A stretch of 64,000 nt of DNA from a virus: the IMG/VR virus record IMGVR_UViG_3300012005_000004, positions 16,370-80,369 of that record. One strand, given 5' to 3'. The notes below the pieces were generated by a model, which saw only the letters and a program-made list of their open reading frames with translations, made no database searches and was not told the origin of the DNA. Below, piece after piece: positions 25,851-58,380 of the stretch; position 1 is the first letter of the stretch, and every line of letters begins with the position of its first letter. Made by a program: the position numbers and the translations under genes.

Positions 25851-27839
25851 ATGGGCAAACTTCTTGAACGTTTCATGACGGACCTAGGCGGACGATCAAC
25901 AGATGATCTAATCCCACTCGAAGATTATCTCGAGCTCTGTAAGACAACCCCAGCAGTTTACGCATCTCCAGCTCAGCGTATGCTTAAGGCTATCGGTGAT
26001 CCAATCACGATCGACACGCGCAACGACACCCGGCTGGCCAAGGTGTTCGGCAACAAGATCATCCGTCAGTATCCAGCATTCAAGGATTTCTACGGCATGG
26101 AAGACGCGATCGAAAACATCGTGTCGTACTTCAAACACTCCGCTCAGGGTCTTGAAGAATCTAAGCAGATCCTGTACTTGCTTGGACCGGTCGGCGGCGG
26201 TAAATCGTCTTTGGCTGAAAAGCTAAAAGCTTTGATGGAAGATGTTCCGGTCTACATTCTCTGCACCCATGAAAAGGAAAAGAAGAACGAACACAGCACC
26301 GTCGAGAAATTTACCACTGAAGTATCTCCGGTCTTTGAAAATCCGCTCGGGTTGTTCCACGGAAAAGAATCGTACGTTACGATGCTCGCCGAAGAATATG
26401 ACATCCCAAAAACCGCGATTCGTACCATCCCATCGCCGTGGGCTGTTAAGAAGCTCGAAAGCTACGGCTATGATTTCTCAAAGTTCTATGTCAAGAAGAT
26501 CTATCCAAGCCGTCTTCGTCAAGAATGTATCGCTCGGGTTGAACCAGGCGATGAAAACAACCAGGATGTTTCTTCAATGGTCGGCGAGCTTAACATCCGC
26601 ATGCTCGAAAAGTTTGACCAGGATCACCCCTACGCTTACACCTTCTCGGGTGGATTGAACAAGGGTAATAATGGCTTGGTCGAAATGGTTGAAATGTTCA
26701 AGACCCCGATCAAGATGTTGAATCCTCTGCTGACGGCCACGCAAGATCGTAACTACACCGGTACGAAGCCGATTGGTTCGATTCCGTTTGACGGCATCAT
26801 CATGGCTCACTCGAACGAATCTGAATGGTCGCAGTTTAAGAATAACAAGACAAACGAAGCGTTCCTCGATCGCGTCTACGTTGTTCACGTTCCATATTGC
26901 ACACGGGTCAATGAAGAAATTTCGATTTACAAAAAGCTATTAGCTCACTCTGAACTGTTCAAGGCGCCTTGTGCTCCTGGAACTCTCGAGTTCCTCGCGC
27001 AATTCTGCGTTATGTCTCGTCTTGAAGAGCCTGGCAACTCAACTCTGTACTCAAAGATGCGAGTCTACAACGGCGAAAACGTCAAGAACGATGATCCGAA
27101 GGCTAAGCCTATCCAAGAATACAAGGATGCGGCCGGAGTCAACGAAGGCATGAAGGGTTTGTCAACTCGTTTTGCCTTCAAGATCCTCTCGAAGACGTTC
27201 AACTTTGACACCGAAGAAGTTGCGGCAAATCCGATCCACCTGATGTATGTCCTCAAGACGTCCATCGCCCACGAGCAATTTGACAGCGAAAAGAATGATG
27301 CGCTGTTGGAAAATCTCGACGGTGTGCTGTCGGACAAGTACATGGAGTTCCTCGAGAAGGATATCCGCGCATCGTTCCTGGATTCATTCCAGGACCTCTG
27401 CCAAAATGTCTTCGAGAACTACTTTTACTACGCCGATGCGTGGGTTCAGGACCAGGAGTTCCGCGATGCAGATACAGGCGTCATGCTTGATCGGCCGGCC
27501 ATCAACGCCGAGCTGGAGAAGATCGAGAAGCCTGCCGGCATCTCTAACCCGAAGGACTTCCGTAATGACATCACGAACTTTGTGATCCGTTATAAGTCTG
27601 ATCATGGTGGTCAGCTGCCGAAGTGGGATTCTTTCGCTAAGATGCGGGACGTGATCGAGAAGAAAGTTTTGGCTTCGACGGATGAGATCCTTCCGGTCAT
27701 CTCATTTGCACCGAAGCGCTCGGAGCAAGACCAGAAGAAACATGAGCAGTTTGTTGGAAAGATGGCGGCGCGCGGTTACACCGAACGCCAAACTCGATTC
27801 CTTTGCGAATGGTTCATGCGTTCCAGGAAAGCGTCGTAA
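25851..27839 (+). CDS. prkA: PrkA/YeaG family AAA+ ATPase / serine kinase
   Basis: KQILYLLGPVGGGKSSLAE, EPGDENNQD, HSNESEW, GLSTRFAFK. Confidence 0.96.
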   Translation: MGKLLERFMTDLGGRSTDDLIPLEDYLELCKTTPAVYASPAQRMLKAIGDPITIDTRNDTRLAKVFGNKIIRQYPAFKDFYGMEDAIENIVSYFKHSAQGLEESKQILYLLGPVGGGKSSLAEKLKALMEDVPVYILCTHEKEKKNEHSTVEKFTTEVSPVFENPLGLFHGKESYVTMLAEEYDIPKTAIRTIPSPWAVKKLESYGYDFSKFYVKKIYPSRLRQECIARVEPGDENNQDVSSMVGELNIRMLEKFDQDHPYAYTFSGGLNKGNNGLVEMVEMFKTPIKMLNPLLTATQDRNYTGTKPIGSIPFDGIIMAHSNESEWSQFKNNKTNEAFLDRVYVVHVPYCTRVNEEISIYKKLLAHSELFKAPCAPGTLEFLAQFCVMSRLEEPGNSTLYSKMRVYNGENVKNDDPKAKPIQEYKDAAGVNEGMKGLSTRFAFKILSKTFNFDTEEVAANPIHLMYVLKTSIAHEQFDSEKNDALLENLDGVLSDKYMEFLEKDIRASFLDSFQDLCQNVFENYFYYADAWVQDQEFRDADTGVMLDRPAINAELEKIEKPAGISNPKDFRNDITNFVIRYKSDHGGQLPKWDSFAKMRDVIEKKVLASTDEILPVISFAPKRSEQDQKKHEQFVGKMAARGYTERQTRFLCEWFMRSRKAS

Positions 27840-28006
27840 TGAATAGCCGAGAGATGTTTGAGCAGTCATTCAAGCGTCCCTCGGACTATTTTAGGTTGAC
27901 AGCCGAGCATCAATGGGAAATTGATGCTCGGCTTGGAATCCTAGATTGGGACGGGAAGAACTTGACAGAAGAAGATCATCTTAGATTTAGAAAACATTAT
28001 GAATGA
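27839..28006 (+). CDS. small hypothetical protein
   Basis: TAATG coupling; QWEIDARLGILDW. Confidence 0.6.
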   Translation: MNSREMFEQSFKRPSDYFRLTAEHQWEIDARLGILDWDGKNLTEEDHLRFRKHYE

Positions 28007-28647
28007 GCAAATGGAGAGTATTTTACTCTCCATTATTTTTAGAGAACATGAAAAATATAAAGATCATATCAGGGGGTCAAACAGGGGCCGACCTAGCTGG
28101 GTTGTGGGTAGCAAAGTTATTTGGATTACAGACAGGAGGGATGGCTCCTAAGGGATGGAAGACGCTGATAGGTTCAATGCCTCAGCTTGAAACCCTATTT
28201 CAAATGGGAGAGTCCGCAAGCGGATATCATGGCAGAACATTAGAAAATTGCGAGATGTCTGACATAACGCTGATCTTTGCATCTAATATTAAGTCGCCAG
28301 GTACCAAGCTAACTCTTCACCATTGTGTCAAGAACAAGATTCACTATCAAATCTTTGCGTTCGGAGACGATGCGGTTACTGCATCAGATCAAGCACTAGG
28401 AAGATTAGTAACAGTTTTGCAAAATCAACTTGCGGTGAATGAAGATTCGATCATTAACATCGCGGGTAATTCAACCTCGACATCCTCACAGACCTTCAAG
28501 TTTACATTTCTCTTGTTGTGTAAAGCTTTTGAGCAAGTTCTCAGATTTAAACCAGAGCAGCTGAAGAATCATGGTATAGATAAGGTAGAGGCGATGGCAC
28601 GAGACCGCTATGATCAATCAACTTTTGATTTTCTTACAAAAGTGTGA
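28003..28647 (+). CDS. SLOG-superfamily protein (putative molybdenum carrier family)
   Basis: KIISGGQTGAD, GGMAPKGW, RT..N..SD.TL, INIAGN. Confidence 0.82.
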   Translation: MSKWRVFYSPLFLENMKNIKIISGGQTGADLAGLWVAKLFGLQTGGMAPKGWKTLIGSMPQLETLFQMGESASGYHGRTLENCEMSDITLIFASNIKSPGTKLTLHHCVKNKIHYQIFAFGDDAVTASDQALGRLVTVLQNQLAVNEDSIINIAGNSTSTSSQTFKFTFLLLCKAFEQVLRFKPEQLKNHGIDKVEAMARDRYDQSTFDFLTKV

Positions 28648-28728
28648 GCGGTGAGATCAAAATTTCTTTTAGTATCTTTTTGAGAAGATCTATATTAGAA
28701 TAGATCTAATCATGGAGAATTCAAGGAA

Positions 28729-29490
28729 ATGAAGGATAATAACTCAAAGCTTCTCGGATTCAATGTTGCACAAGCTGCCTCTCAGTTTCGCTTGATGCAG
28801 CATCACGAATTGGTTAGCTACATCTTTCGCTCGAATGGTGTTGAGGATTACCTTGATTATTTCAATGCCCACAATCCATCTAGCGATATCCCATATCACA
28901 ATAAGTACCACACTTATTGTATGGCATTGAATGTCTATGAGGCTTCTCTCTATTACAATCTTTCTATAGAAGCTCGACGAGCTCTTCTAGTTGCCGCATT
29001 ATTTCACGATTATGATCATTCTGGTGGACGCAAAACTGACGACATAAACGTCGCCATAGCCGCAAATAACCTGGTTGATGCTCATAAACAGCTTGTAGAA
29101 ATATACCGAACTCAACCGGTCTCCGACGTCGGAGACCACTTCGCTCACTTAACTCCAAAAGAGCTCATTGATGCGATTGAGACGTTGCTTATTACTAAAT
29201 ACCCCTATGATGGACCTCCAGTCACGATGCTTCAAAAGATCATTCGTGATGCGGACTTGATGCAAGTATACGAAGAAGATGCTGATCGTCTGCGACAGCA
29301 ATTTCTCGGTCTAAAGGCTGAGATGGAGCTTACGCGCGGACCCTTTACACCAGAACAATGGGGCGATGGATGTCGTGATTTTAACGATGCTACCGTCTGG
29401 CATACCCAGTGGGCCCAGGACAAGGCGGTCGCCTTGGACCAAAAGGCTTGCACGGAACATCTTAGAAATTTATTGATAGGAAACAAATGA
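28729..29490 (+). CDS. HD-domain phosphohydrolase
   Basis: PYHNKYH, AALFHDYDH, IIRDAD. Confidence 0.85.
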   Translation: MKDNNSKLLGFNVAQAASQFRLMQHHELVSYIFRSNGVEDYLDYFNAHNPSSDIPYHNKYHTYCMALNVYEASLYYNLSIEARRALLVAALFHDYDHSGGRKTDDINVAIAANNLVDAHKQLVEIYRTQPVSDVGDHFAHLTPKELIDAIETLLITKYPYDGPPVTMLQKIIRDADLMQVYEEDADRLRQQFLGLKAEMELTRGPFTPEQWGDGCRDFNDATVWHTQWAQDKAVALDQKACTEHLRNLLIGNK

Positions 29491-30872
29491 GCATCGTCAT
29501 CAATGATAAGCGTAAAGTAACAAGGGATCGCACGTCTGAAAATCGGGCTCGTTTCCTTCGACGCATCAAGGGAACCATCAAGGAACAGATGAATGATATC
29601 ATCGGTGGAAAATCTCTCAAGGAGATGGACAAGACCGGTGGTAACATAAAGGTTAATCGAAAAACGATAACCGAGCCTCAGATCTGGCACACCGACGGAG
29701 GTAACGTCGATCGCGTCTTGCCTGGAAATGATCAATATGTTCCAGGAGATACCATCCAGAAACCACGCCAAGGCGGAGGTCAAGGACGCGGCAAGAATGC
29801 AAGCGATGGTCCAAACTCTGAAGATGATTTTGTGATTGAGCTGTCTCCTAAGGAATTCATGGATTATTTCTTTGAAGACCTAGAGCTGCCAGACATGATG
29901 AAAACCCAGCTGACGAAGATCAAGGAATATAAGCGTGAAAATGCTGGATTCCAAACAGATGGATCTCCGAATCGGCTGTCGGTCATTCGATCTTACAAAC
30001 AATCTTTCGCGCGCCGAATGATGATGAATGGAGTCTTCAAAGATCGCATCGCTATTCTCAACGAGCTACTTTACGTATTGACAAACTCGGAGATGCTAGC
30101 GGTGAAAATGATATCACTTCCACTTACGATTGATATCAAAGAAGCTGTGATCGAGACCGATAAGCTGCCTGAACGTGGAACATTTGAGCATGATCTTTTA
30201 GTCGCTACTGTCCAAGCTGAGATAGATCATTTGCACTTCAAGTGCGAGAACATGGCGATGTTCGAAGAGATGGACATGCGCTATAGAACTGTTATTAAGC
30301 GTGAGATTCCGATCGCACACGCTACCATGATGATGATCATGGATAACTCAGGATCGATGGGTGAGAAGGAAAAGACGATCGCTAGGAAGTTCTTCTGGTT
30401 GCTATACTCCTTCCTGGTCCGCGCATACGAGAAAGTTGACATGGTATTCATCTCACACACCACCGAAGCATCTGAGATGACCGAAGAAGAATTCTTTAAC
30501 ACTCGCGAGAACGGTGGAACTATCGTATCTTCAGCTTTGGATCTCACTAACGAGATCATCCAGAAGCGTCTGTTAAATAAGACTAACATCTATGTTGCTC
30601 AAGTTTCTGATGGTGACAATGTAGATTCTGACAATGACACTTGCATTGACATTCTTACCGATCAAATCCTCCCAAACATTCGCTACATGGCTTATGTTCA
30701 GGTAGATGATTATCATGGAGATGAAAATGCAAATGTCTATGGGAAAGGTTTATGGAGAGCTTATAAGTCGATCTCAGATACTAACTCGCGGTTGCAGATA
30801 AAACGCGTGCAAGATGAAAATAACATCTACCCTGTCTTCAGGGATTTGTTCAAAAAGAAAGAAACATCATAA
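29487..30872 (+). CDS. yeaH: YeaH/YhbH (DUF444) vWA protein
   Basis: NRARFLRR, PGNDQY..GD, FEDLELP, MDNSGSM, GGTIVSSAL, SDGDN. Confidence 0.93.
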   Translation: MSIVINDKRKVTRDRTSENRARFLRRIKGTIKEQMNDIIGGKSLKEMDKTGGNIKVNRKTITEPQIWHTDGGNVDRVLPGNDQYVPGDTIQKPRQGGGQGRGKNASDGPNSEDDFVIELSPKEFMDYFFEDLELPDMMKTQLTKIKEYKRENAGFQTDGSPNRLSVIRSYKQSFARRMMMNGVFKDRIAILNELLYVLTNSEMLAVKMISLPLTIDIKEAVIETDKLPERGTFEHDLLVATVQAEIDHLHFKCENMAMFEEMDMRYRTVIKREIPIAHATMMMIMDNSGSMGEKEKTIARKFFWLLYSFLVRAYEKVDMVFISHTTEASEMTEEEFFNTRENGGTIVSSALDLTNEIIQKRLLNKTNIYVAQVSDGDNVDSDNDTCIDILTDQILPNIRYMAYVQVDDYHGDENANVYGKGLWRAYKSISDTNSRLQIKRVQDENNIYPVFRDLFKKKETS

Positions 30873-31081
30873 TGAAAGTCAAAGTAGAGATTAAGTACCC
30901 ACGGTTCGCGGTTCAGTTTGGAAGACAGATCGCCTTTGGACAGATCTACAAAGATGGTGCATTGTTCTTTGACGGATCAATCGCTCAAATTTTAGAGGTT
31001 GTTAAAGTGCAAGACTTTGAGATCGAGAACGCGCAGGAGATTCTTGACCTTATAGTTCGACTCCACGGGTTTGCTTGCTAA
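30872..31081 (+). CDS. hypothetical protein
   Basis: TAATG coupling. Confidence 0.55.
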   Translation: MKVKVEIKYPRFAVQFGRQIAFGQIYKDGALFFDGSIAQILEVVKVQDFEIENAQEILDLIVRLHGFAC

Positions 31082-31090
31082 AAGGCAGAG

Positions 31091-31606
31091 ATGAAACTCT
31101 CAACGATTTGGCATCTTCTCGCCTTAGCGACGGCTGCTGGTTTAGTAGCAATTTGCTATCCAGAACCTACTAAGAAACCAGAGCTTAAGCAAGTGGTTTC
31201 TACCACCTTAACTAAGGTCCCTGGAGTCTCTGAAGGTATAGAGCTGTACATAGACACCAAGACCATCGAAGATTTTGTTGATTCAAAGTCCTCAGTTCGA
31301 CACGCTGTAGTGGTGTACTATTTTACAACACCACTTGTCATTAGAGGTAAGGATGTTTATTACATGCAAAAAGATGCTTTTTATGCATGTGATGATAATC
31401 TCTTCTTAAACGGTGATATAATCTTCTATGACAAGGCCGCCAGCCAGCTTTTCAAAGGACCAACTGGTGTCGGTGTTGAAAAACCAGAGAAGGATACAAA
31501 CTCAGAGGTTGAGATGAAATTTATCTGTGGCTCCAATGTTACAAAGAAGTCAGCTCCAAAGAGCTCAATCGGCCCAATAAAGCCACTTAATCACATTTAC
31601 ATTTAA
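31091..31606 (+). CDS. exported or membrane-anchored hypothetical protein
   Basis: Signal-like N-terminus; paired Cys. Confidence 0.6.
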   Translation: MKLSTIWHLLALATAAGLVAICYPEPTKKPELKQVVSTTLTKVPGVSEGIELYIDTKTIEDFVDSKSSVRHAVVVYYFTTPLVIRGKDVYYMQKDAFYACDDNLFLNGDIIFYDKAASQLFKGPTGVGVEKPEKDTNSEVEMKFICGSNVTKKSAPKSSIGPIKPLNHIYI

Positions 31607-31617
31607 GGAGCATTAAC

Positions 31618-33162
31618 TTGTCCGAAGATAAACTATTATTCAAGGCCGGTGATGATTGGACGTTTGAGATGCTCGATAAGATCTGGACCGAGATCGAGAT
31701 CATCGCTAAGGAAGAGCTGCGAATTCCTTATTACAAACCACAGATTGAAGTTATCACAGCACGACAGATGCTTGATGCTTATACCTCTGTCGGTATGCCA
31801 ACATACTACAAACACTGGTCATACGGTAAGGAATTTGTCCAAAGCGAGAAGCAGTATCTCAATGGACAGATGGGTCTCGCTTACGAGATTGTCATTAACT
31901 CTGACCCATGCATCGCTTACCTGATGGAAGAAAACAATGCCCTGATGCAAACCTTGGTCATGGCTCACGCTTCAGTCGGCCACGCGGCGGTTTTCACGAA
32001 CAACTACCTATTCCGCCAGAACACAGACGCGTCGGCGATCGTAGATTATCTCAACTTTGCTAGGGATTACCTGAAAAAGTGCGAGGAAAAGTATGGCTTT
32101 GATGAGGTAGAAGGTGTACTAGATGCATGCCATGCGTTATCGAACTACGGTGTCGATAAGTACAAGCGTCCACCAAAGATTTCGGCTGACAAAGAAGCTA
32201 AGAAAGCGATGGAGCGCTTTGAGCGCGAATTTGCTGACTACGATCCGATCTGGGCTAAGATCGGAAAACGGAAGGCTGATGCTAAGGATGTAAATCCTGT
32301 CACTGATACTAAGCTTGCTGAATCACAGGAAAACATCCTCTATTTTATCGAGAAAAATGCTCCACACCTTCCAGGTTGGAAACGTGAGGTCATCCGCATC
32401 GTACGGAAGATCAGTCATTATTTCTCACCGCAGCGTGCCACCAAGGTTCTGAATGAAGGGTACGCATCATTCACCCACTTCTACATTATGAATCGACTTC
32501 ATGAGAAGGGTTTCATCGACGGTGGTTCGATGATTGAATTCTTCGCTAGCCACAGCGGAGTTCTAACTCAACATAAATTTTCACAGTTCAACCCGTACAA
32601 GCTTGGTTTTTCGATCTTCATGGACATCAAGAGGATGGGTGAGGATCCAACCGATGAAGATCGATTATACTTTCCTGACCTTGCTGGAAAAGACTGGGTC
32701 ACCGAGATTAACTATGCGATGAAGAACTTCAAGGATGAAACATTTATCCTTCAGTACCTATCTCCAAAGGTCGCTCGAGACATGCAGTTGTTCGTAATTA
32801 ACTCAGAGTCGACAGGAGCTACACAATACGGCGTAACCGAGATCAGTAACCTTGAGGGTTTTGAAACTTTGCGTAAGAAATTGGCCGCACAGTTCGCGAT
32901 GGAAAATATCATCCCCGACATCCAAATTTCAAACGTTGATTACAAGCGCTCACGAAAGCTTACTCTTGAGCACCTGGTTAAGAACGGGAAGCCAATCAAT
33001 ATTGATGATACTCGTCGCGTTGTCCAACACGTCGCCGATCTGTGGGAATACTCAGTCACGCTAGATACCTTCGAATATGACAAGGAAGATGATGCAACCA
33101 AGCTTCACATCACAGCCCTTGGAAAATACTCAATGAAATCATATGAAGAAACCCACAGTTAA
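31618..33162 (+). CDS. ycgB: SpoVR/YcgB family protein
   Basis: GMPTYYKHWSYGK, LAYEIVINSDPCIAYLMEEN, TKVLNEGYAS, NPYKLG. Confidence 0.95.
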   Translation: MSEDKLLFKAGDDWTFEMLDKIWTEIEIIAKEELRIPYYKPQIEVITARQMLDAYTSVGMPTYYKHWSYGKEFVQSEKQYLNGQMGLAYEIVINSDPCIAYLMEENNALMQTLVMAHASVGHAAVFTNNYLFRQNTDASAIVDYLNFARDYLKKCEEKYGFDEVEGVLDACHALSNYGVDKYKRPPKISADKEAKKAMERFEREFADYDPIWAKIGKRKADAKDVNPVTDTKLAESQENILYFIEKNAPHLPGWKREVIRIVRKISHYFSPQRATKVLNEGYASFTHFYIMNRLHEKGFIDGGSMIEFFASHSGVLTQHKFSQFNPYKLGFSIFMDIKRMGEDPTDEDRLYFPDLAGKDWVTEINYAMKNFKDETFILQYLSPKVARDMQLFVINSESTGATQYGVTEISNLEGFETLRKKLAAQFAMENIIPDIQISNVDYKRSRKLTLEHLVKNGKPINIDDTRRVVQHVADLWEYSVTLDTFEYDKEDDATKLHITALGKYSMKSYEETHS

Positions 33163-40377: not shown

Positions 40378-42498
40378 ATGCAACGGATTTATAAGGATAA
40401 TGCCGTGTTGCGAGGCATTATCGAAAACACCATGGATGCGATCATCGTCATTAACGATGATAATAAAGTAGTAGAATGGAACAAGTATGCCACTGATTTA
40501 TTTGGATATACCCAAGATGAAGCTATCGGTAGATCATTATCTTCTCTGATTATACCAGATACGTTCATTCCTCACCATGAGGCATGCGTTAATCGAGCTG
40601 TCCAAAATCAAAAAGATCATTGTTATCTTAGAACTGAGATGGATGCACGCAGAAAAGATGGTTGTAAGCTCAAAATTGAGCTTACAGTTTCTCAGATAAC
40701 TCTAAAAGATCAAAGCGGAATAAAGAATAGTTTGTTTAGCGTAGCAATACGTGATATCACAGTTCAAAAGAATAGTCAAGACCGTGTGATTCGCCAAGCT
40801 TCTCTTTTAGATCTTTCGCGTGATGGTATCTATGTTATTGATAAAGATCAGAGGTTGACTTGGTGGAATAAGGGGGCTGAGCTGCTCTACGGATATTCCA
40901 CTGATGAAGCTATCGGTCATATAGCTTATGAATTGTTACAAACAGATTACCCACTAAGTGGTAGGAATGCCTTTGAAGAGATCTTTCAAACACTTCTACA
41001 TTCTGGTTCTTGGGAAGGGGAGTTGACGCAACTCACAAAAGACGGTAATCGCGTTACAGTTCTCAGCCGTTGGGTACTTGATATCGAATATGATGAAGTG
41101 TTAATAACTAATACCAATATCACAGAGCTAAAACGAAATCAAGAAAAAATCGAATATCTCGCTACGCATGATGATCTCACTGGTTTGCCAAACCGTCGGT
41201 TGCTAGAAGATAGAATAAACCATGCGATAATCCAATGTGAACGAAATGGTGGTCACGTTGGTGTTCTATTCTTAGACCTTGATCGTTTCAAGATCATAAA
41301 TGATTCGCTTGGTCATGACATGGGAGATAAACTACTCAATGAGGTTAGTCAAAGATTAGTCAAATCAGTGAGACGTGAAGATACCGTAGCTCGTCTAGGT
41401 GGAGATGAATTTGTAGTAGTTCTTGAGAATGTATCAAATATTGAAGATATAGCTGAGATCTCTTCCAAGATACTGAATTCTATTCAACAACCTATTTCAT
41501 TGGGAGAAGGTGCTGGGAAGAGCATCTCAATCAACACTAGCATTGGTGGTTCCGTCTACCCAAAAGATGGCCTAGACGTTATCACATTGATGAGGAACGC
41601 TGATTTAGCTATGTATAAGTCTAAAGAATATGAAATGGGGGCATTTCGTTTCTACAGCCCAGAGATGAATGAGTTAGTTCTTCAACGACTGACAAATGAA
41701 AATAATTTAAGAAAAGCATTGAATAATGAAGAATTCATTCTCCATTTTCAACCGAAGATCTGTAGCGCAGAAGGGCGTACCACCGGTGTTGAAGCATTGA
41801 TTCGATGGAACCACCCAGAAAAGGGTTTAATCATGCCATCTGAATTTATTGGATTAGCTGAAGAGATCGGGTTAATCAATAAAATTGGTGAGTGGGCTCT
41901 ATACGCAGCGTGCGAGCAAAATAAAGCATGGCAAAATATGGGATTGCCTCTCATACAGATGTCAGTAAACTTGTCAGTGCACCAGCTCACGCCAAATTTA
42001 GTTAACATCGTATCAAAAGCGTTGAAAATGTCTGGCTTAGATCCAAAGTGGTTAGACCTAGAAGTTACCGAATCTGCTGCGATGAAAGATGTAGACATGA
42101 CGATTGAAACCTTAGGTAAACTTCGAAAGCTTGGTGTGTCAATCTCTATCGATGATTTTGGAACTGGATATTCATCTCTAGAATATCTTAAAAAGATGCC
42201 GTTAGATAACTTGAAGATTGATCAATCATTTGTTAGTGGCATTCCAACAGATTCTAATGACCTTTGTATCGTGGCTGCAATCATTGGTCTGGCTCATAAC
42301 ATGAAGCTACGAGTGATCGCTGAAGGAGTGACATCTAAAGAACAAGTTGCGTTCTTAGACACACACAAATGTGATGAGATGCAGGGTTACCTATTCAGCC
42401 GTCCAGTGACAGCTGAGGACGTAGAGCAAAGGTTGATCGGTCAAGTTTGGAGCTACCCATACCAAGGAAATCATGAACTACGAACGTGCGATGATTGA
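40378..42498 (+). CDS. PAS-PAS-GGDEF-EAL diguanylate cyclase/phosphodiesterase
   Basis: HDDLTGLPNR, RRED I-site, GGDEF, EALIRW, DDFGTGYSS, IAEGV. Confidence 0.96.
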   Translation: MQRIYKDNAVLRGIIENTMDAIIVINDDNKVVEWNKYATDLFGYTQDEAIGRSLSSLIIPDTFIPHHEACVNRAVQNQKDHCYLRTEMDARRKDGCKLKIELTVSQITLKDQSGIKNSLFSVAIRDITVQKNSQDRVIRQASLLDLSRDGIYVIDKDQRLTWWNKGAELLYGYSTDEAIGHIAYELLQTDYPLSGRNAFEEIFQTLLHSGSWEGELTQLTKDGNRVTVLSRWVLDIEYDEVLITNTNITELKRNQEKIEYLATHDDLTGLPNRRLLEDRINHAIIQCERNGGHVGVLFLDLDRFKIINDSLGHDMGDKLLNEVSQRLVKSVRREDTVARLGGDEFVVVLENVSNIEDIAEISSKILNSIQQPISLGEGAGKSISINTSIGGSVYPKDGLDVITLMRNADLAMYKSKEYEMGAFRFYSPEMNELVLQRLTNENNLRKALNNEEFILHFQPKICSAEGRTTGVEALIRWNHPEKGLIMPSEFIGLAEEIGLINKIGEWALYAACEQNKAWQNMGLPLIQMSVNLSVHQLTPNLVNIVSKALKMSGLDPKWLDLEVTESAAMKDVDMTIETLGKLRKLGVSISIDDFGTGYSSLEYLKKMPLDNLKIDQSFVSGIPTDSNDLCIVAAIIGLAHNMKLRVIAEGVTSKEQVAFLDTHKCDEMQGYLFSRPVTAEDVEQRLIGQVWSYPYQGNHELRTCDD

Positions 42499-44596: not shown

Positions 44597-44625
44597 TTTA
44601 CAAACTCAAAAAGTTAGTTTATAAT
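44597..44625 (+). promoter_or_regulatory. sigma70-like early promoter for Ro60
   Basis: TTTACA-N17-TATAAT. Confidence 0.8.
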
Positions 44626-44711
44626 TCTCCTTCACGCTTAAGCTAGTGTGTTGAATAGTGGCGCTGATCCATTGAAGGATCACAATTCCCTAACTGAAAG
44701 GTAATAAAAAC

Positions 44712-46148: not shown

Positions 46149-46232
46149 TGTTTTACGCATGGCACATGCGTACAAGTCCCCTGGATAAGAGATGGAATGT
46201 GCTAACAGAGGTCGGTTTACCATTCACCTCTT

Positions 46233-46366
46233 GGATGTGTAGCTCAGGTTGGTAGAGCGTCTAGTAGGAAAGCCCGGACGTTGATCCCATGTGGAAGCGC
46301 ATGGAGTAGTCGCGGTGTAGCAAGTACAAATGAAGGTCGCAGGTTCGACGCCTGCCACATCCGCCA
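46233..46366 (+). ncRNA. tRNA-like RNA (134 nt) with anticodon arm replaced by a long hairpin
   Basis: Acceptor GGATGTG/CACATCC+GCCA, D arm GCTC-AGGTTGGTA-GAGC, T arm GCAGG-TTCGACG-CCTGC; about 80 nt between D and T arms. Confidence 0.8.
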
Positions 46367-46900: not shown

Positions 46901-46975
46901 AATTCTTAAGTAAGAGCGATCTTAGTAGAGATACACTGTTAACATTAGCAGTACTAAGGCTCTTACTTAAGAATT
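46901..46975 (+). ncRNA. hairpin small RNA
   Basis: Perfect 17-bp stem 46901-46917/46959-46975 plus inner CTTAGTA/TACTAAG. Confidence 0.6.
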
Positions 46976-47040
46976 CAGGTGGCGTAGATAACGGTTACTT
47001 CACTTCCAAAGAAACCAACCGTTCTCGCTTAGTTCCCCTG
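46976..47040 (+). ncRNA. candidate minimal Y-RNA-like hairpin
   Basis: CAGG/CCTG closing, bulged GCG/CGC, AACGGTT/AACCGTT helix, TTC/GAA cap; near rsr. Confidence 0.5.
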
Positions 47041-47046
47041 TAATAT

Positions 47047-47126
47047 GGTTCCGTAGCTCAATGTTAGAGCGCCTGGTCCCTTTGCGGACAGGAGATAGTG
47101 GAGTTCAAATCTCTCTCGGATCCACC
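47047..47126 (+). tRNA. atypical tRNA-like gene (extended anticodon stem, 6-nt loop CTTTGC)
   Basis: GGTTCCG/CGGATCC acceptor with T-T mismatch, D arm GCTC/GAGC, TTCAAAT loop. Confidence 0.6.
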
Positions 47127-47167
47127 TAAATTTGTAATTTTTGTGAAGTCTTATAAATAAACCTGTT

Positions 47168-47263
47168 ATGAAAAACTTTGTTTCCTTACTGTCGCTTAGT
47201 TATTGGTCATTGTCCTACCTTGGACAAGGCCTTGATGTACCGACTGAAGGATGGGATTTGTAG
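47168..47263 (+). CDS. putative Leu/Ser-rich leader peptide (31 aa)
   Basis: MKNFVSLLSLSYWSLSYLGQGLDVPTEGWDL* directly after TATAAATA; overlaps alternative hairpins. Confidence 0.55.
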   Translation: MKNFVSLLSLSYWSLSYLGQGLDVPTEGWDL

Positions 47264-47291
47264 GAACCCACAAAGATTCAGCAGGTTTATC

Positions 47292-47319
47292 AAGGCTCCG
47301 CAAGGGGCCTTAATTGTTT
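47292..47319 (+). terminator. terminator-like hairpin (attenuator candidate)
   Basis: AAGGCTCC-GCAA-GGGGCCTT then AATTGTTT; weak U-tract. Confidence 0.55.
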
Positions 47320-47422
47320 CTGGAGATAGAAAATGGATTGTGATCATGGATATCTTCTGGGCAATGGTTTGGGTGTTGTGGATAGCGATGATAGCTTCGC
47401 TGATCAGCACTGATTAAAATAT

Positions 47423-47505
47423 CTTCGACTGGCTAATACAAACTGGCACAGTTAGCGTCCTCAAAAGTCGCGCCTCTATCGGTTCGAATCCGATGTCGAA
47501 GACCA
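47423..47505 (+). tRNA. tRNA-Leu(CAA), short variable arm, long D loop
   Basis: CTTCGAC/GTCGAAG+ACCA; loop CTCAAAA; ATCGG-TTCGAAT-CCGAT. Confidence 0.8.
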
Positions 47506-47516
47506 AAGTAGTATAT

Positions 47517-47607
47517 GGATCTCGCAAGTAAGGATGGGTGGTCCCGTCAGCCGGCTGTAACCCGGTTCCTATTAGGCAAGGCGTTCAACTCGACCCGAGA
47601 TCCACCA
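47517..47607 (+). tRNA. atypical tRNA-Tyr(GTA), 8-bp acceptor, 6-bp D stem
   Basis: GGATCTCG/CGAGATCC+ACCA; GATGGG-TGGT-CCCGTC; GCCGG-CTGTAAC-CCGGT. Confidence 0.75.
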
Positions 47608-47611
47608 AAAT

Positions 47612-47696
47612 GTATCAGTAGACCCTTAAGGAGAGGGGACAGTCTGTAAAACTGTTGGCTTTGCCCTGCTAGGATCGTTACCTAGATGATGCACCA
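47612..47696 (+). tRNA. tRNA-Tyr(GTA)
   Basis: ACAGT-CTGTAAA-ACTGT; T loop ATCGTTA; ACCA end. Confidence 0.85.
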
Positions 47697-47720
47697 AGAA
47701 GTATGTTATAATGGGATTAT

Positions 47721-47810
47721 GGAAGATAGCGTCTAAGGTAGACAAACGGCTTTGAACACCGTCGCCAACACCTCAGTAGGGTTGTCAGTTCGATTCTGGT
47801 CTCTTCCGCC
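47721..47810 (+). tRNA. tRNA-Ser(TGA), 8/4 fold
   Basis: GGAAGATA/TCTCTTCC, loop TTTGAAC, long V arm, TCAG-TTCGATT-CTGG. Confidence 0.8.
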
Positions 47811-49653: not shown

Positions 49654-49735
49654 GGGATTGTGGCTAATACAAATCGGCACAGTTATCAGGTTTAGAACCT
49701 GAGCCTTTGAGGGTTCGAATCCCTCCAGTCCTACC
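49654..49735 (+). tRNA. tRNA-Leu(TAG), short variable arm
   Basis: TCAGG-TTTAGAA-CCTGA; D region nearly identical to Leu(CAA) at 47423. Confidence 0.85.
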
Positions 49736-55283: not shown

Positions 55284-55589
55284 ATGCCGTGGATAACAAA
55301 CAGAATTTTCAAGATACGATTTTTGAAGCAAGGTAAAAATAGTGAAGATCATACGATACAATTTGAGATAGCAGATACTGGTCGCATTGAATTTTATAAA
55401 GAGATCGAATACTTTTTAGCGTCTTGCATCAACGCTGATGCATTCATTGCTAAGTGTGAGAGCATCATTGATGACTCTGGAGAAGCTACCGAGCTTGAAA
55501 TCGAGATCTCTGGATCCCAAGGAAAGTTGATGCAGGTGTTAAACCAACATGGGCCGGAGCTGAGCAAGCATTCGGTTAGTTTTAAATGA
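55284..55589 (+). CDS. hypothetical protein
   Basis: AGGA SD before ATG 55284. Confidence 0.55.
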   Translation: MPWITNRIFKIRFLKQGKNSEDHTIQFEIADTGRIEFYKEIEYFLASCINADAFIAKCESIIDDSGEATELEIEISGSQGKLMQVLNQHGPELSKHSVSFK

Positions 55590-56137
55590 TAGAAGAGATT
55601 AAGGTAATATTTCTAGACATCGATGGAGTTATTAACTCATTACGCTCATTTACCGCGTTCAAACCTTATAACCCAGAAGATGATCTCGAGCTAGAAACCA
55701 TCGCTACATGTGATCCTGTTTCTGTTAAGTTAATCAATATGATCGTCGAGCAGACCAAGGCTAAGATCGTCGTATCATCTTCTCACCGAATTTACTTTCA
55801 CTCAAGGTATGCTTCTCGATTTCAAGAGACGTCCTTCTTAGGATTTGACCTAGACAAGCTTCAGCTGTATATCTCCTCACTTGGAATTTTTGGTGAAGTC
55901 ATCGACGCAACTCCTATCTTTGATGGTGAGAAGAGGGGTGAAGAGGTAAATGGATGGTTAAATGAATTTCCAGCAAAATTTCCTTTATATGCGTTGAGTC
56001 GGTATGCCATCTTTGATGATACCACAGACTTTCTAGCAGAGCAAGCGTCAAAGCTAGTTCTATCTACTTTTGATAATGGGTTTTCAATCGACAACTACAA
56101 GCGAGCGTTATTGATCTTAGGAGATGACATTGCCTGA
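55586..56137 (+). CDS. HAD phosphatase, Swiss-Army-Knife RNA-repair type
   Basis: FLDIDGV, IVVSSS, RGEEV..WL, YAIFDD. Confidence 0.82.
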   Translation: MIEEIKVIFLDIDGVINSLRSFTAFKPYNPEDDLELETIATCDPVSVKLINMIVEQTKAKIVVSSSHRIYFHSRYASRFQETSFLGFDLDKLQLYISSLGIFGEVIDATPIFDGEKRGEEVNGWLNEFPAKFPLYALSRYAIFDDTTDFLAEQASKLVLSTFDNGFSIDNYKRALLILGDDIA

Positions 56138-57754: not shown

Positions 57755-58041
57755 ACAAATACTCAACATCACTTGCAATTTTTGCTCAAGCTCCAGCAAT
57801 GAGTATTGACCAGGAGCTTACCGTTAAGCTTAAGGTTCTGTCGGAACAGAAGGATGATGTGAAATCAGACCAGGTACTTGAGATCCTTGATCTCGGAGCC
57901 AGATATTCAATGATGAGCGAGTTTGCGATGCGGGCTCTTGACGAGCTGTGGTACATAATGATCAAAGATGAAGGTAAGACAGAGGAACAAGCTAGGTTGG
58001 AAGCTGAGCCAAGACGCAAGGCTCATGAGGCTAGCGAATAA
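57751..58041 (+). CDS. hypothetical protein
   Basis: ATGA coupling. Confidence 0.55.
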   Translation: MNKYSTSLAIFAQAPAMSIDQELTVKLKVLSEQKDDVKSDQVLEILDLGARYSMMSEFAMRALDELWYIMIKDEGKTEEQARLEAEPRRKAHEASE

Positions 58042-58049
58042 ATATTAGT

Positions 58050-58380
58050 TCATGATTGTGTGGGAAGGTAACTTCTCGAATGTCAATTTGAATGTAGTTT
58101 GGACAAGGGTTCGATTCCCTTCACCTCCACCGCGTTTTTAAGTTTTTAATGGGGGTGCCCTGGTTTCGACAGGCTAAGCTAGAAGAGAATACAATCCGGT
58201 AGGCGATGACCGTTAATCAAGCAAACGTTTAAATGCAAATGAAGCATTTTTTGGAAAGTTCGCTCTCGTAGCGTAGTTTCCACGAGGTTAACCACCTTGT
58301 CTCCGAACGGTTGAGGGAGCAACGCTCTCTTAGGGGTTTTAGCCGGTAGTCCTATCAACAGAATGAAACCGGCGCCAACG
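58050..58380 (+). ncRNA. ssrA: circularly permuted (two-piece) tmRNA; ends approximate
   Basis: T arm and CACCTCC-ACC (to 58131) precede the 5' end GGGGGTG...TTCGAC (58151); G3-U70 pair; tag ANEAFFGKFALVA* at 58235-58276. Confidence 0.9.

Follow-up and report, generated by a model that had tools for sequence, protein, structure and literature searches.

The DNA analysed here, referred to below as the window, is a 64,000-nt stretch comprising positions 16370-80369 of an 80,369-nt virus record (IMG/VR record IMGVR_UViG_3300012005_000004; CheckV completeness 22%), which is a fragment of a jumbo phage. The only cultured phages related to it at the DNA level are Brevundimonas jumbo phages, with 70-74% identity over 7-11% of a 2-kb query. 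The window carries a gene for Ro60, the only open reading frame (ORF) of the 80-kb record with a TROVE match, and 84 nt past its stop codon, on the same strand, starts an element that resembles a tRNA gene with a long hairpin in place of the anticodon arm (Table 1). An earlier note, made from the letters of the DNA alone, had rightly placed this element just downstream of Ro60 and had read it as a circularly permuted Y RNA with real tRNA ends, which could be processed by RNase P and perhaps charged.

Table 1. Window coordinates of the element, its parts and related features of the Ro60 locus
Feature	Position	Strand	Basis
tRNA-shaped RNA gene without anticodon, 134 nt, CCA encoded	46233..46366	+	Sequence; descriptor scan (D-to-T gap 80, acceptor 7/7); homologues L272 and L296
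Acceptor stem, 5′ strand GGATGTG	46233..46239	+	Watson-Crick 7/7 with 46356-46362 CACATCC
D arm GCTC-AGGTTGGTA-GAGC	46242..46258	+	Identical in L272 and L296
5′ linker (G26, then ..GTAGGAAAGC)	46259..46273	+	GTAGG(G)AAAGC core kept in L272/L296; no anticodon-stem partner
Stem S1, 5′ strand CCGGAC	46274..46279	+	Pairs with 46309-46315 around bulged G 46312
Internal loop, long side GTTGATC	46280..46286	+	G(N)TTGA(W)C kept in L272/L296
Distal hairpin S2, CCATGTG-GAAG-CGCATGG	46287..46304	+	Minimum free energy fold; different helix at same place in L272/L296
Internal loop, short side AGTA	46305..46308	+	A(T)GTA kept in L272/L296
S1, 3′ strand with bulged G (GTC-G-CGG)	46309..46315	+	Minimum free energy fold; per-sequence check of homologues
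3′ linker (TGTAGCAAGTAC + 6 nt)	46316..46333	+	First 12 nt identical in all three homologues
Variable loop AGGTC and T arm GCAGG-TTCGACG-CCTGC	46334..46355	+	T arm proper 46339-46355; identical in L272, one T-loop change in L296
Acceptor 3′ strand CACATCC, discriminator G, CCA	46356..46366	+	G 46363, CCA 46364-46366
Stem-loop Y RNA, canonical Ro-type module, no tRNA-like part inside	46975..47039	+	5′-strand hidden Markov model, E 2.3e-8 (46975-47010)
Ro60 (TROVE) gene, 478 aa	44712..46148	+	Pfam TROVE E 5e-12, 46.2 bits versus cut-off 23
Promoter-like site 5′ of Ro60 (TTTACA-17-TATAAT, 11/12)	44597..44625	+	Consensus scan only

The element has the 7-bp acceptor stem, D arm, T arm, discriminator and CCA of a tRNA, all as the earlier note had claimed, and lacks the 5-bp anticodon stem with a 7-nt loop and an anticodon. 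A TA dinucleotide lies between the 5′ acceptor strand and the D arm, and on direct reading the bases at the textbook positions of the tRNA tertiary contacts are all present (U8, A14, G15/C48, G18G19, U54U55C56, A58, and G53:C61). Seven Watson-Crick pairs at the required place are expected by chance with a frequency of only ~6e-5, and N-CCA then follows. The stretch from D to T arm (46259-46338) is 80 nt long, against 23 nt in class I tRNA, which gives the 57 extra nucleotides reported earlier. The long hairpin that had been drawn from CCGGAC to CGG is both the minimum free energy (MFE) and the centroid fold of 46274-46315 (-15.5 kcal/mol, z = -1.94, 9 of 200 shuffles as good), with a 6-bp stem containing a bulged G, an internal loop of 7 and 4 nt, a 7-bp distal stem, and a GAAG loop. 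The long side of the internal loop resembles the ..TTGATCC/..TGTTCC strand of canonical Y RNA units, and its short side with the preceding GG reads GG-N-GTAG, as in the units of loci L024 and L104 and of phage crAss001 that are described below. The position that TTACTTC takes in other Y-type units is occupied here by the 3′ linker.

ARAGORN in its default mode makes no call at the element and the Rfam tRNA model (RF00005) has no match in it either at the gathering score or at E ≤ 10, in agreement with the earlier statement that no anticodon stem can be rebuilt. The ordinary tRNAs of the same phage also have an encoded CCA. One might still see in the element an ordinary tRNA gene with an intron or insertion that is removed to yield a decoding tRNA, and ARAGORN with introns allowed does return a tRNA-Ser(GGA) with a 35-nt intron. 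In this model, however, two of the five anticodon-stem pairs are mismatched and a 26-nt "variable arm" is unpaired. The program also accepted as tRNAs 671 of 767 versions of the element with arbitrary deletions, so that its call carries no information here. Self-splicing group I introns need more than 57 nt, for which the extra sequence is too short, and the supposed intron is what the homologues described next keep, not any anticodon. The spliced decoding tRNA was rejected on the mismatched stem and the accepted deletions, and we regard a removable intron or insertion as very improbable; splicing to a normal tRNA, the outcome that the earlier note had set against its own reading, thus finds no support.

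A homologue of the element (L272) came from a pattern scan of one genome per prokaryote species. The scan was too loose, most of its 120 rows being chance matches, and the acceptor test was passed only by L253 and L272. A metagenome scan with the conserved 11-mer and the T arm returned the L272 sequence again (L297) and a variant, L296. Both homologues come from metagenomes or metagenome-assembled genomes (MAGs). Compared with L272 and L296, 6 of the 7 acceptor pairs of the element are changed on both sides and none is broken, while two of the six pairs of S1 show compensatory double changes (C-G to G-C; C-G to U-A) and the bulged G is retained. Where the element has S2, L272 and L296 have a helix that differs in sequence and length (CTTGG-7 nt-CCAAG / CTAAG). 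The D and T arms, the linker core, both loop strands and the 12 nt of the 3′ linker are kept, and CCA is encoded in the element, L272 and L296, as it also is in L024. The discriminator is G in the element and U in both homologues. Pairing in S1 and S2 was checked by script in each sequence, because MAFFT had displaced the S1 columns by one position. Applied to the MAFFT alignments, RNAalifold found no more than the acceptor, D and T arms in alignment A1 and gave an implausible interior fold for A3, where the S1 columns are shifted.

The limits of homology coincide with the tRNA-like ends, and the flanks are unrelated. When the window is compared with a 12-kb piece of genome G001, which contains a homologue, the element is the sole match at the DNA level (79% over 123 nt), and the Ro60 proteins of the two are 27% identical. 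There are no conserved protein neighbours, and five small ORFs searched by tblastn against all loci were without a match. Two pattern searches of viral contigs gave no more homologues of the exact type, a hidden Markov model (HMM) run over all collected loci matched only L272 with its copies and L296, and among 50,697 phage records compared by blastn, the only match was that of the D arm to a tRNA-Gly. Among contigs compared with the window, only the source DNA was found again, together with one piece of a relative at 47044-47129.

Helices kept through compensatory changes, together with the small odds of the acceptor stem, make the element more than a chance arrangement, and we are confident from these comparisons that it represents a real, conserved, tRNA-shaped non-coding RNA. 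Selection seems to keep its shape and not an identity set. An unconserved acceptor stem and a discriminator that is G in one case and U in the others argue against a fixed aminoacylation identity; with homologues of 79% identity differing in this way, the suggestion that the RNA is perhaps chargeable is disfavoured, and specific aminoacylation appears unlikely.

The conservation also bears on two other readings. The likeness to tRNA might be accidental, the D arm having been left by a decayed YrlA (the bacterial Y RNA of Rfam family RF02553) and the T arm belonging to the next tandem unit, or the element might be a dying pseudogene. The Rfam YrlA model does have a weak match at 46190-46290 (20.7 bits, E 0.15), the upstream AGGTC...CACCTC-TTG-GATGTG might be the remains of a T arm and of a closed acceptor hairpin (5/6 pairs, by eye), and a D arm followed by a T arm at about +100 occurs across unit borders of tandem arrays as well (L015, L030, L144). 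Those array cases, however, are without complementarity of the kind found here, where a 7/7 acceptor and G-CCA stand exactly at the end of the T arm. The upstream flank of L272 and L296 is unrelated and has no acceptor-strand complement, and the far 3′ pairing is kept there through six double changes. Since homology is confined to the tRNA-like ends, the D arm does not derive from a decayed rotated YrlA at 46190-46290, and an accidental origin deserves hardly any credence. The second reading takes the element mainly as a processing signal, a tRNA-like punctuation mark at which RNase P and 3′ nucleases would separate the Ro60 message from that of a downstream small ORF and which has no further role as an RNA. 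The element indeed has + strand ORFs on both sides, the next of which shows an in-frame ATG (46369) 2 nt beyond the CCA, and a consensus scan of the + strand called no terminator-like site between the Ro60 gene and the element. A bare punctuation mark does not need a conserved 80-nt arm, however, and the arm loops, bulged G and 12-nt linker are kept while flanks and neighbour genes are not; we consider a role limited to processing improbable.

The place of such an RNA among Y RNAs was examined in other genomes with Ro60. The window's Ro60 protein as query found 33 related viral loci (34-68% identity), and 72 cultured phage records contain a relative of it. A scan for rotated units, in which a T arm is followed by a hairpin and then by a D arm, gave 40 candidates; near-duplicates L015 and L032 as well as L006 were left out and the remaining candidates are tandem tRNAs, so that the rotated set has 23 canonical YrlA units in 19 of the 33 loci plus phage Gurke (by eye). 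These units read ..GTGGCGTAGA-(stem)-TTACTTC.. before the T arm and (stem)-TCGCYTGTTCCC.. after the D arm, which is the published YrlA layout (Chen 2014, PMC4201824; Wang 2018, bioRxiv 10.1101/312249; here and below, papers are cited for the parts of them that were covered). Rotated units are also found in Tenjo, RHph_TM61 and CcrColossus. We also noticed that the 5′ strand and T arm of rotated YrlA units have been called tRNA-Ser, at L036 3397-3471 in the GenBank annotation of Gurke and at L003 1997-2068 by ARAGORN; judged by their sequence, some phage tRNA-Ser genes beside Ro60 are Y RNAs.

Scanning the Ro60-related loci for the reverse arrangement (an acceptor of 7 bp, then D arm, long gap, T arm and acceptor) gave the window's element, L024 and L031/L032. 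The L024 unit lies ~90 nt upstream of Ro60 and has a 7/7 acceptor, an 87-nt arm and an ACCA end. Its arm reads stem / GGCGATTCC / TCTCCC-GCGA-GGGAGA / CGGTGTAGA / stem / TACTTC, which by its motifs is a canonical Ro-type module with the outer stem capped by a tetraloop. L031 holds the rotated and the tRNA-order form within one locus. More widely, a D arm and a T arm separated by a gap of 70-98 nt occur in at least 124 viral stretches; among the matches listed, 53 of 107 such candidates have a 7/7 acceptor, with ~0.1% expected by chance, and 54 distinct tRNA-order long-insert sequences with a 7/7 acceptor were counted across all loci. Sorted by eye, they comprise a Y-motif class (..GYG..-stem-TTACTT), a class with an anticodon arm and a ~60-nt insert in the variable region, an ACAGCAA class, and singletons. 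Ro60 adjoins Y-motif units on the same strand in L082, L095, L101, L104 and L107, and no TROVE gene was found in the examined fragments of L041, L045 and L105, which are 12-70% complete. For elements found by pattern, this amounts to Ro60 in 5 of 8 Y-motif contigs versus 0 of 5 ACAGCAA-class records. L082, L101 and L107 carry two or three tRNA-order copies each, the nearest ~30 nt upstream of Ro60; in L095 and L104 the unit is downstream of Ro60.

The design also occurs in a cultured phage and in a bacterium. In crAss001, an unannotated 900-nt gap after TROVE gene gp96 holds two tRNA-order Y units (L299 4154-4297 and 4408-4547), of which the first is 87.5% identical to that of L104 with a compensatory change in the stem. 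In the second, the acceptor stem is 8 bp long and the D arm is degenerate, and the gap (L299 3880-4786; MH675552.1 ~95,960-96,870) also contains two stem-loop Y-type units by eye. In the 6.9-Mb bacterial genome G002, a tRNA-order Y unit (L291 2583-2710, minus strand) lies 150 nt upstream of a 532-aa TROVE ORF; this unit has a 7/7 acceptor and an A-CCG end, and a stem-loop Y-type unit stands between it and the TROVE ORF. With clear Ro-type motifs in tRNA-order elements that flank Ro60, the circularly permuted Y RNA with tRNA ends is a real design: as far as layout and motifs tell, YrlA-like Y RNAs in true tRNA order exist and recur beside Ro60. In the covered parts of Chen 2014, Wang 2018, the phiLo Ro60 paper, a jumbo-phage survey and a crAss001 paper, Y RNAs are rotated or stem-loop forms or do not appear, and the literature searched holds no description of tRNA-order ones, although a mention in the supplements of Chen 2014 cannot be excluded.

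Several features connect the window's element with these units, which we group informally as tRNA-order Y RNAs (L024, L031/32, L082, L095, L101, L104, L107, crAss001, and G002). It shares with them the open 7-bp acceptor, the D and T arms, an arm of 65-90 nt in which a stem leads through an asymmetric loop to a capped distal helix, and a Ro60 gene alongside on the same strand. The arms agree further in having a linker, a stem of 6-9 bp, an asymmetric loop, a distal helix closed by CC/GG, and a terminal loop, and the GG-N-GTAG and ..TGATCC/..TGTTCC strands match those of L024, L104, crAss001 and phage Gurke. At least one other Y RNA is present at the locus, a canonical Ro-type stem-loop 600 nt downstream whose first part is the top match in the window of the 5′-strand HMM (the best match of the 3′-strand HMM is at 47017-47039, E 4.5), and the homologue in G001 is directly followed by two units with Ro-type motifs (GTAGACAGTTACTTC). 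Among the marks of YrlA, the element has a Ro60 orthologue within ~4 kb on the same strand (a criterion from Chen 2014, PMC4201824) and tRNA-like D and T stem-loops, its D arm aligning to the D arm of the YrlA model. The rotated order is absent from it, the order being acceptor 5′ strand, D arm, arm, T arm, acceptor 3′ strand and G-CCA. YrlA has a Ro60-binding motif of the type GNCGAAN0-1G on the strand that leads from the RNA end, with GGCGTAGA as its counterpart in related phages; the element contains GGAGTAG (46303-46309) and GGTGTAG (46314-46320), and the HMM of that strand has no match in it.

A number of results weigh against counting the element among Y RNAs. HMMs of the canonical 5′ and 3′ Ro-binding strands, built from 23 units and run with nhmmer, have no match in it even when it is the whole search space; the 5′-strand model is insensitive, as it missed all nine Y-motif tRNA-order loci. 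An HMM of 16 Y-motif-group arms does not match the element either, its best match in the window being the Y RNA at 46975 (E 0.0033), and neither does one of 13 ACAGCAA-class arms. TTACTT(C/A) directly 3′ of the arm stem is found in 14 of 14 other aligned tRNA-order Y units and is replaced in the element by TGTAGCAAGTAC, which along with ATG(Y)TTG resembles, by eye, the ACAGCAA class that lacks Ro60. The YrlA model, whose use the earlier note had proposed, reaches nothing at its gathering score of 69, and its one weak match, given above, has a span that is not the element's. The homologue and the TROVE gene of G001 are on different contigs. Thermodynamics alone gives little, with a z-score of -1.57 for the whole element and a mean MFE z-score of -0.64, none significant, for 15 arms of the element and related inserts.

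These points could mean that the element is a tRNA-shaped shell independent of Ro60, with an arm that binds another partner or with a role as decoy or inhibitor of a tRNA-directed enzyme of host or phage, and that it lies near Ro60 only through the clustering of tRNA-like genes. Many of the tRNA-order long-insert elements counted above are without Ro60, among them the ACAGCAA class, which was without TROVE in the five records searched. By eye, the element has GAAAGC, ..G(Y)TTGA.. and GTAGCAA at the places that correspond to this class, and an A-rich linker, stem and ..AGCAA.. are common to both. More odd tRNA-like genes follow in 47047-47808, the strand HMMs are negative, and the record of phage T5, which encodes the tRNA-like RNA1 discussed below, is not among the Ro60-bearing records in the matches listed (43 of 72). 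On the other side, this RNA type occurs in two independent contexts, each of them a Y-RNA array. In the distal arm of the element, CC/GG, GG-N-GTAG and TTGATCC are arranged as in the Ro-linked units, and the HMM of the ACAGCAA class misses the element too. We regard such an independent RNA as possible though unlikely, and lean slightly towards a stable tRNA-shaped non-coding RNA of the Ro60/Y-RNA system, that is, a Y RNA of YrlA kind in tRNA order. Binding by Ro60, to go by position and architecture, has a little over an even chance. The earlier reading thus holds for the tRNA order and ends and for a design that recurs by Ro60, and is weakened where the hairpin escapes the strand HMMs, TTACTT is missing and the junction motifs recall a class without Ro60.

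The downstream region has further tRNA-like genes. One at 47047-47123 begins 6-7 nt past the stem-loop Y RNA, has an over-long anticodon stem-loop and scores 28.4 bits with the Rfam tRNA model, just below the 29-bit gathering score; in a relative, on a contig from a different study, Y strand and tRNA-like gene are adjacent in the same way. This gene may set the 3′ end of the stem-loop Y RNA through RNase P. Three more (47421-47506, 47517-47605, and 47721-47808) have acceptor stems of 6-8 bp, T arms, and CCA or near-CCA ends; ARAGORN missed them, Rfam gives 18-20 bits or nothing, and at least one is without a recognisable D arm. The Rfam tRNA model also matches at 49654-49733 with 38.9 bits, a gene that ARAGORN does not list. 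Upstream, a small hairpin just 5′ of Ro60 (44640-44700, ..GTGGCGCTGATCC-ATTGAA-GGATCACAATTCCC..) is weakly like a Ro-type module and is absent from the matches of the strand HMMs.

Two groups from the wider searches can be described in their own right. Loci L068, L069, L074, L079, L085, L090, L120, L123, L128, L134, L154 and L157 form the ACAGCAA family in tRNA order, with an arm made of an A-rich linker, a 6-bp hairpin with a TGYTTG loop, and then ACAGCAA. The same module occurs in rotated, YrlA-like order in L165, L166 and L168, with ends GGATCAGTTCAGCA.../...GTTGATCC. A group of near-identical tRNAs (L047, L067, L072, L073, L088, L109, L116, L119, L122, L135, L136, L138, L153, and L155) has the acceptor GCCGTCA/TGGCGGC, a normal-looking anticodon arm, a ~60-nt insert in the variable region, and no CCA.

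Elsewhere, the window carries a PrkA / DUF444 / SpoVR gene set and a PAS-GGDEF-EAL protein (25851-33162 and 40378-42498), and the phage also encodes TerC/DUF475 and a fused CoaE-cytidylyltransferase. The HAD domain of "Swiss Army Knife" RNA repair proteins is found at 55586-56137; no RtcB or CCA-adding enzyme family was found in the 80-kb fragment, which is 22% complete.

The element may work as follows. It would be transcribed together with or just after Ro60, host RNase P would cut its 5′ end, and its 3′ end would be trimmed back to the encoded CCA. It is established that both cleavage by bacterial RNase P and 3′ trimming of precursors with an encoded CCA are directed by the 7-bp acceptor stem, the T arm and CCA, and the earlier claim that the RNA is RNase P-processable is a sound prediction from its sequence. 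The tRNA body would then supply processing, tRNA-type modification and stability, and the distal arm, with its CC/GG pair and its GG-N-GUAG and UUGAUCC loop strands, might dock the phage Ro60 ring. The elbow and acceptor end of the tRNA body, left exposed, could recruit or decoy a tRNA-handling factor, the role proposed for the tRNA-like domain of YrlA.

Among known RNAs, the element is most readily compared with YrlA, likewise a small RNA by the Ro60 gene on the same strand, with D and T arms, an acceptor-type stem, the tertiary-contact bases, and a long irregular stem at the anticodon position that carries the Ro60 site in YrlA and would carry it here. YrlA, however, ends in the Ro-binding stem and has a closed acceptor hairpin, whereas in the element the acceptor is open, CCA is encoded and the distal stem is capped by a loop. 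YrlA has been termed circularly-permuted-tRNA-like and said to lack "a free CCA end" (Chen 2014, PMC4201824; Wang 2018, bioRxiv 10.1101/312249). In Mycobacterium smegmatis, a Ro60-bound YrlA whose acceptor stem has 7 bp receives its 5′ end through a cut by RNase P and gains CCA at its 3′ end in vivo (Chen 2014, PMC4201824), so open tRNA ends on a Y RNA have a precedent. There the acceptor is opened by cutting the closed loop, which leaves two pieces of 82 and 65 nt; the element is one continuous RNA in tRNA order that needs no internal cut.

Phage T5 RNA1 (AY543070.1 30501-30644), annotated as "tRNA-like stable RNA with unknown functions", is likewise phage-encoded and lies in a tRNA cluster. 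It resembles the element in its length of ~140 nt, acceptor-type stem, T arm, and long insert at the place of the anticodon arm, and differs in a Leu-type D arm and an extra arm. We know of no link between T5 RNA1 and Ro60. Transfer-messenger RNA (tmRNA), with its one-piece and permuted two-piece forms, is a precedent for a tRNA-like ribonucleoprotein RNA in both gene orders, but it serves ribosome rescue, is charged with alanine and has no Ro60. The same phage encodes a permuted two-piece tmRNA at 58038-58367 (Rfam tmRNA_permuted 123 bits, beta_tmRNA 116 bits), for which ARAGORN gives the tag peptide ANEAFFGKFALVA. In the engineered "tRNA scaffold", a cargo hairpin replaces the anticodon arm and the tRNA body gives processing and stability; being man-made, it serves as an analogy only.

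Since 2014, the purpose of the tRNA-like half has been a standing question for bacterial Y RNAs. Several tRNA pathways are excluded for YrlA in its rotated form with a closed acceptor, whereas a free, CCA-ended acceptor changes the possible partners to include RNase P, the CCA-adding enzyme, EF-Tu, synthetases and nucleases that sense 3′ ends, and the tRNA-order form thus gives a simple contrast with the rotated form for testing. As the design is present in cultured crAss001, whose TROVE gene is reported to be early (Shkoporov 2021), and also accompanies a bacterial Ro60, bench work on the question is possible without this uncultured phage. ARAGORN and Rfam are blind to tRNA-order Y genes, and neighbouring rotated units are annotated as tRNA-Ser, so that phage tRNA counts and Y RNA censuses are both biased. 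Taken together, the observations allow a wider proposal that we put forward tentatively and think rather unlikely to hold in full: some Ro60 partners would be members of the tRNA pool in everything except decoding, made as single pieces, matured by RNase P, ended by CCA, and handled by tRNA-modifying enzymes and perhaps by the CCA-adding enzyme, synthetases and EF-Tu. Through them, phage and bacterial Ro60 rings might be carried to or shielded from machines that act on tRNA, such as ribosomes, tRNA repair enzymes and anticodon-nuclease defences. The rotated form of YrlA would then be a secondary permutation of a tRNA-order ancestor, or the reverse, and because both forms coexist in single loci such as L031, this permutation event is open to study.

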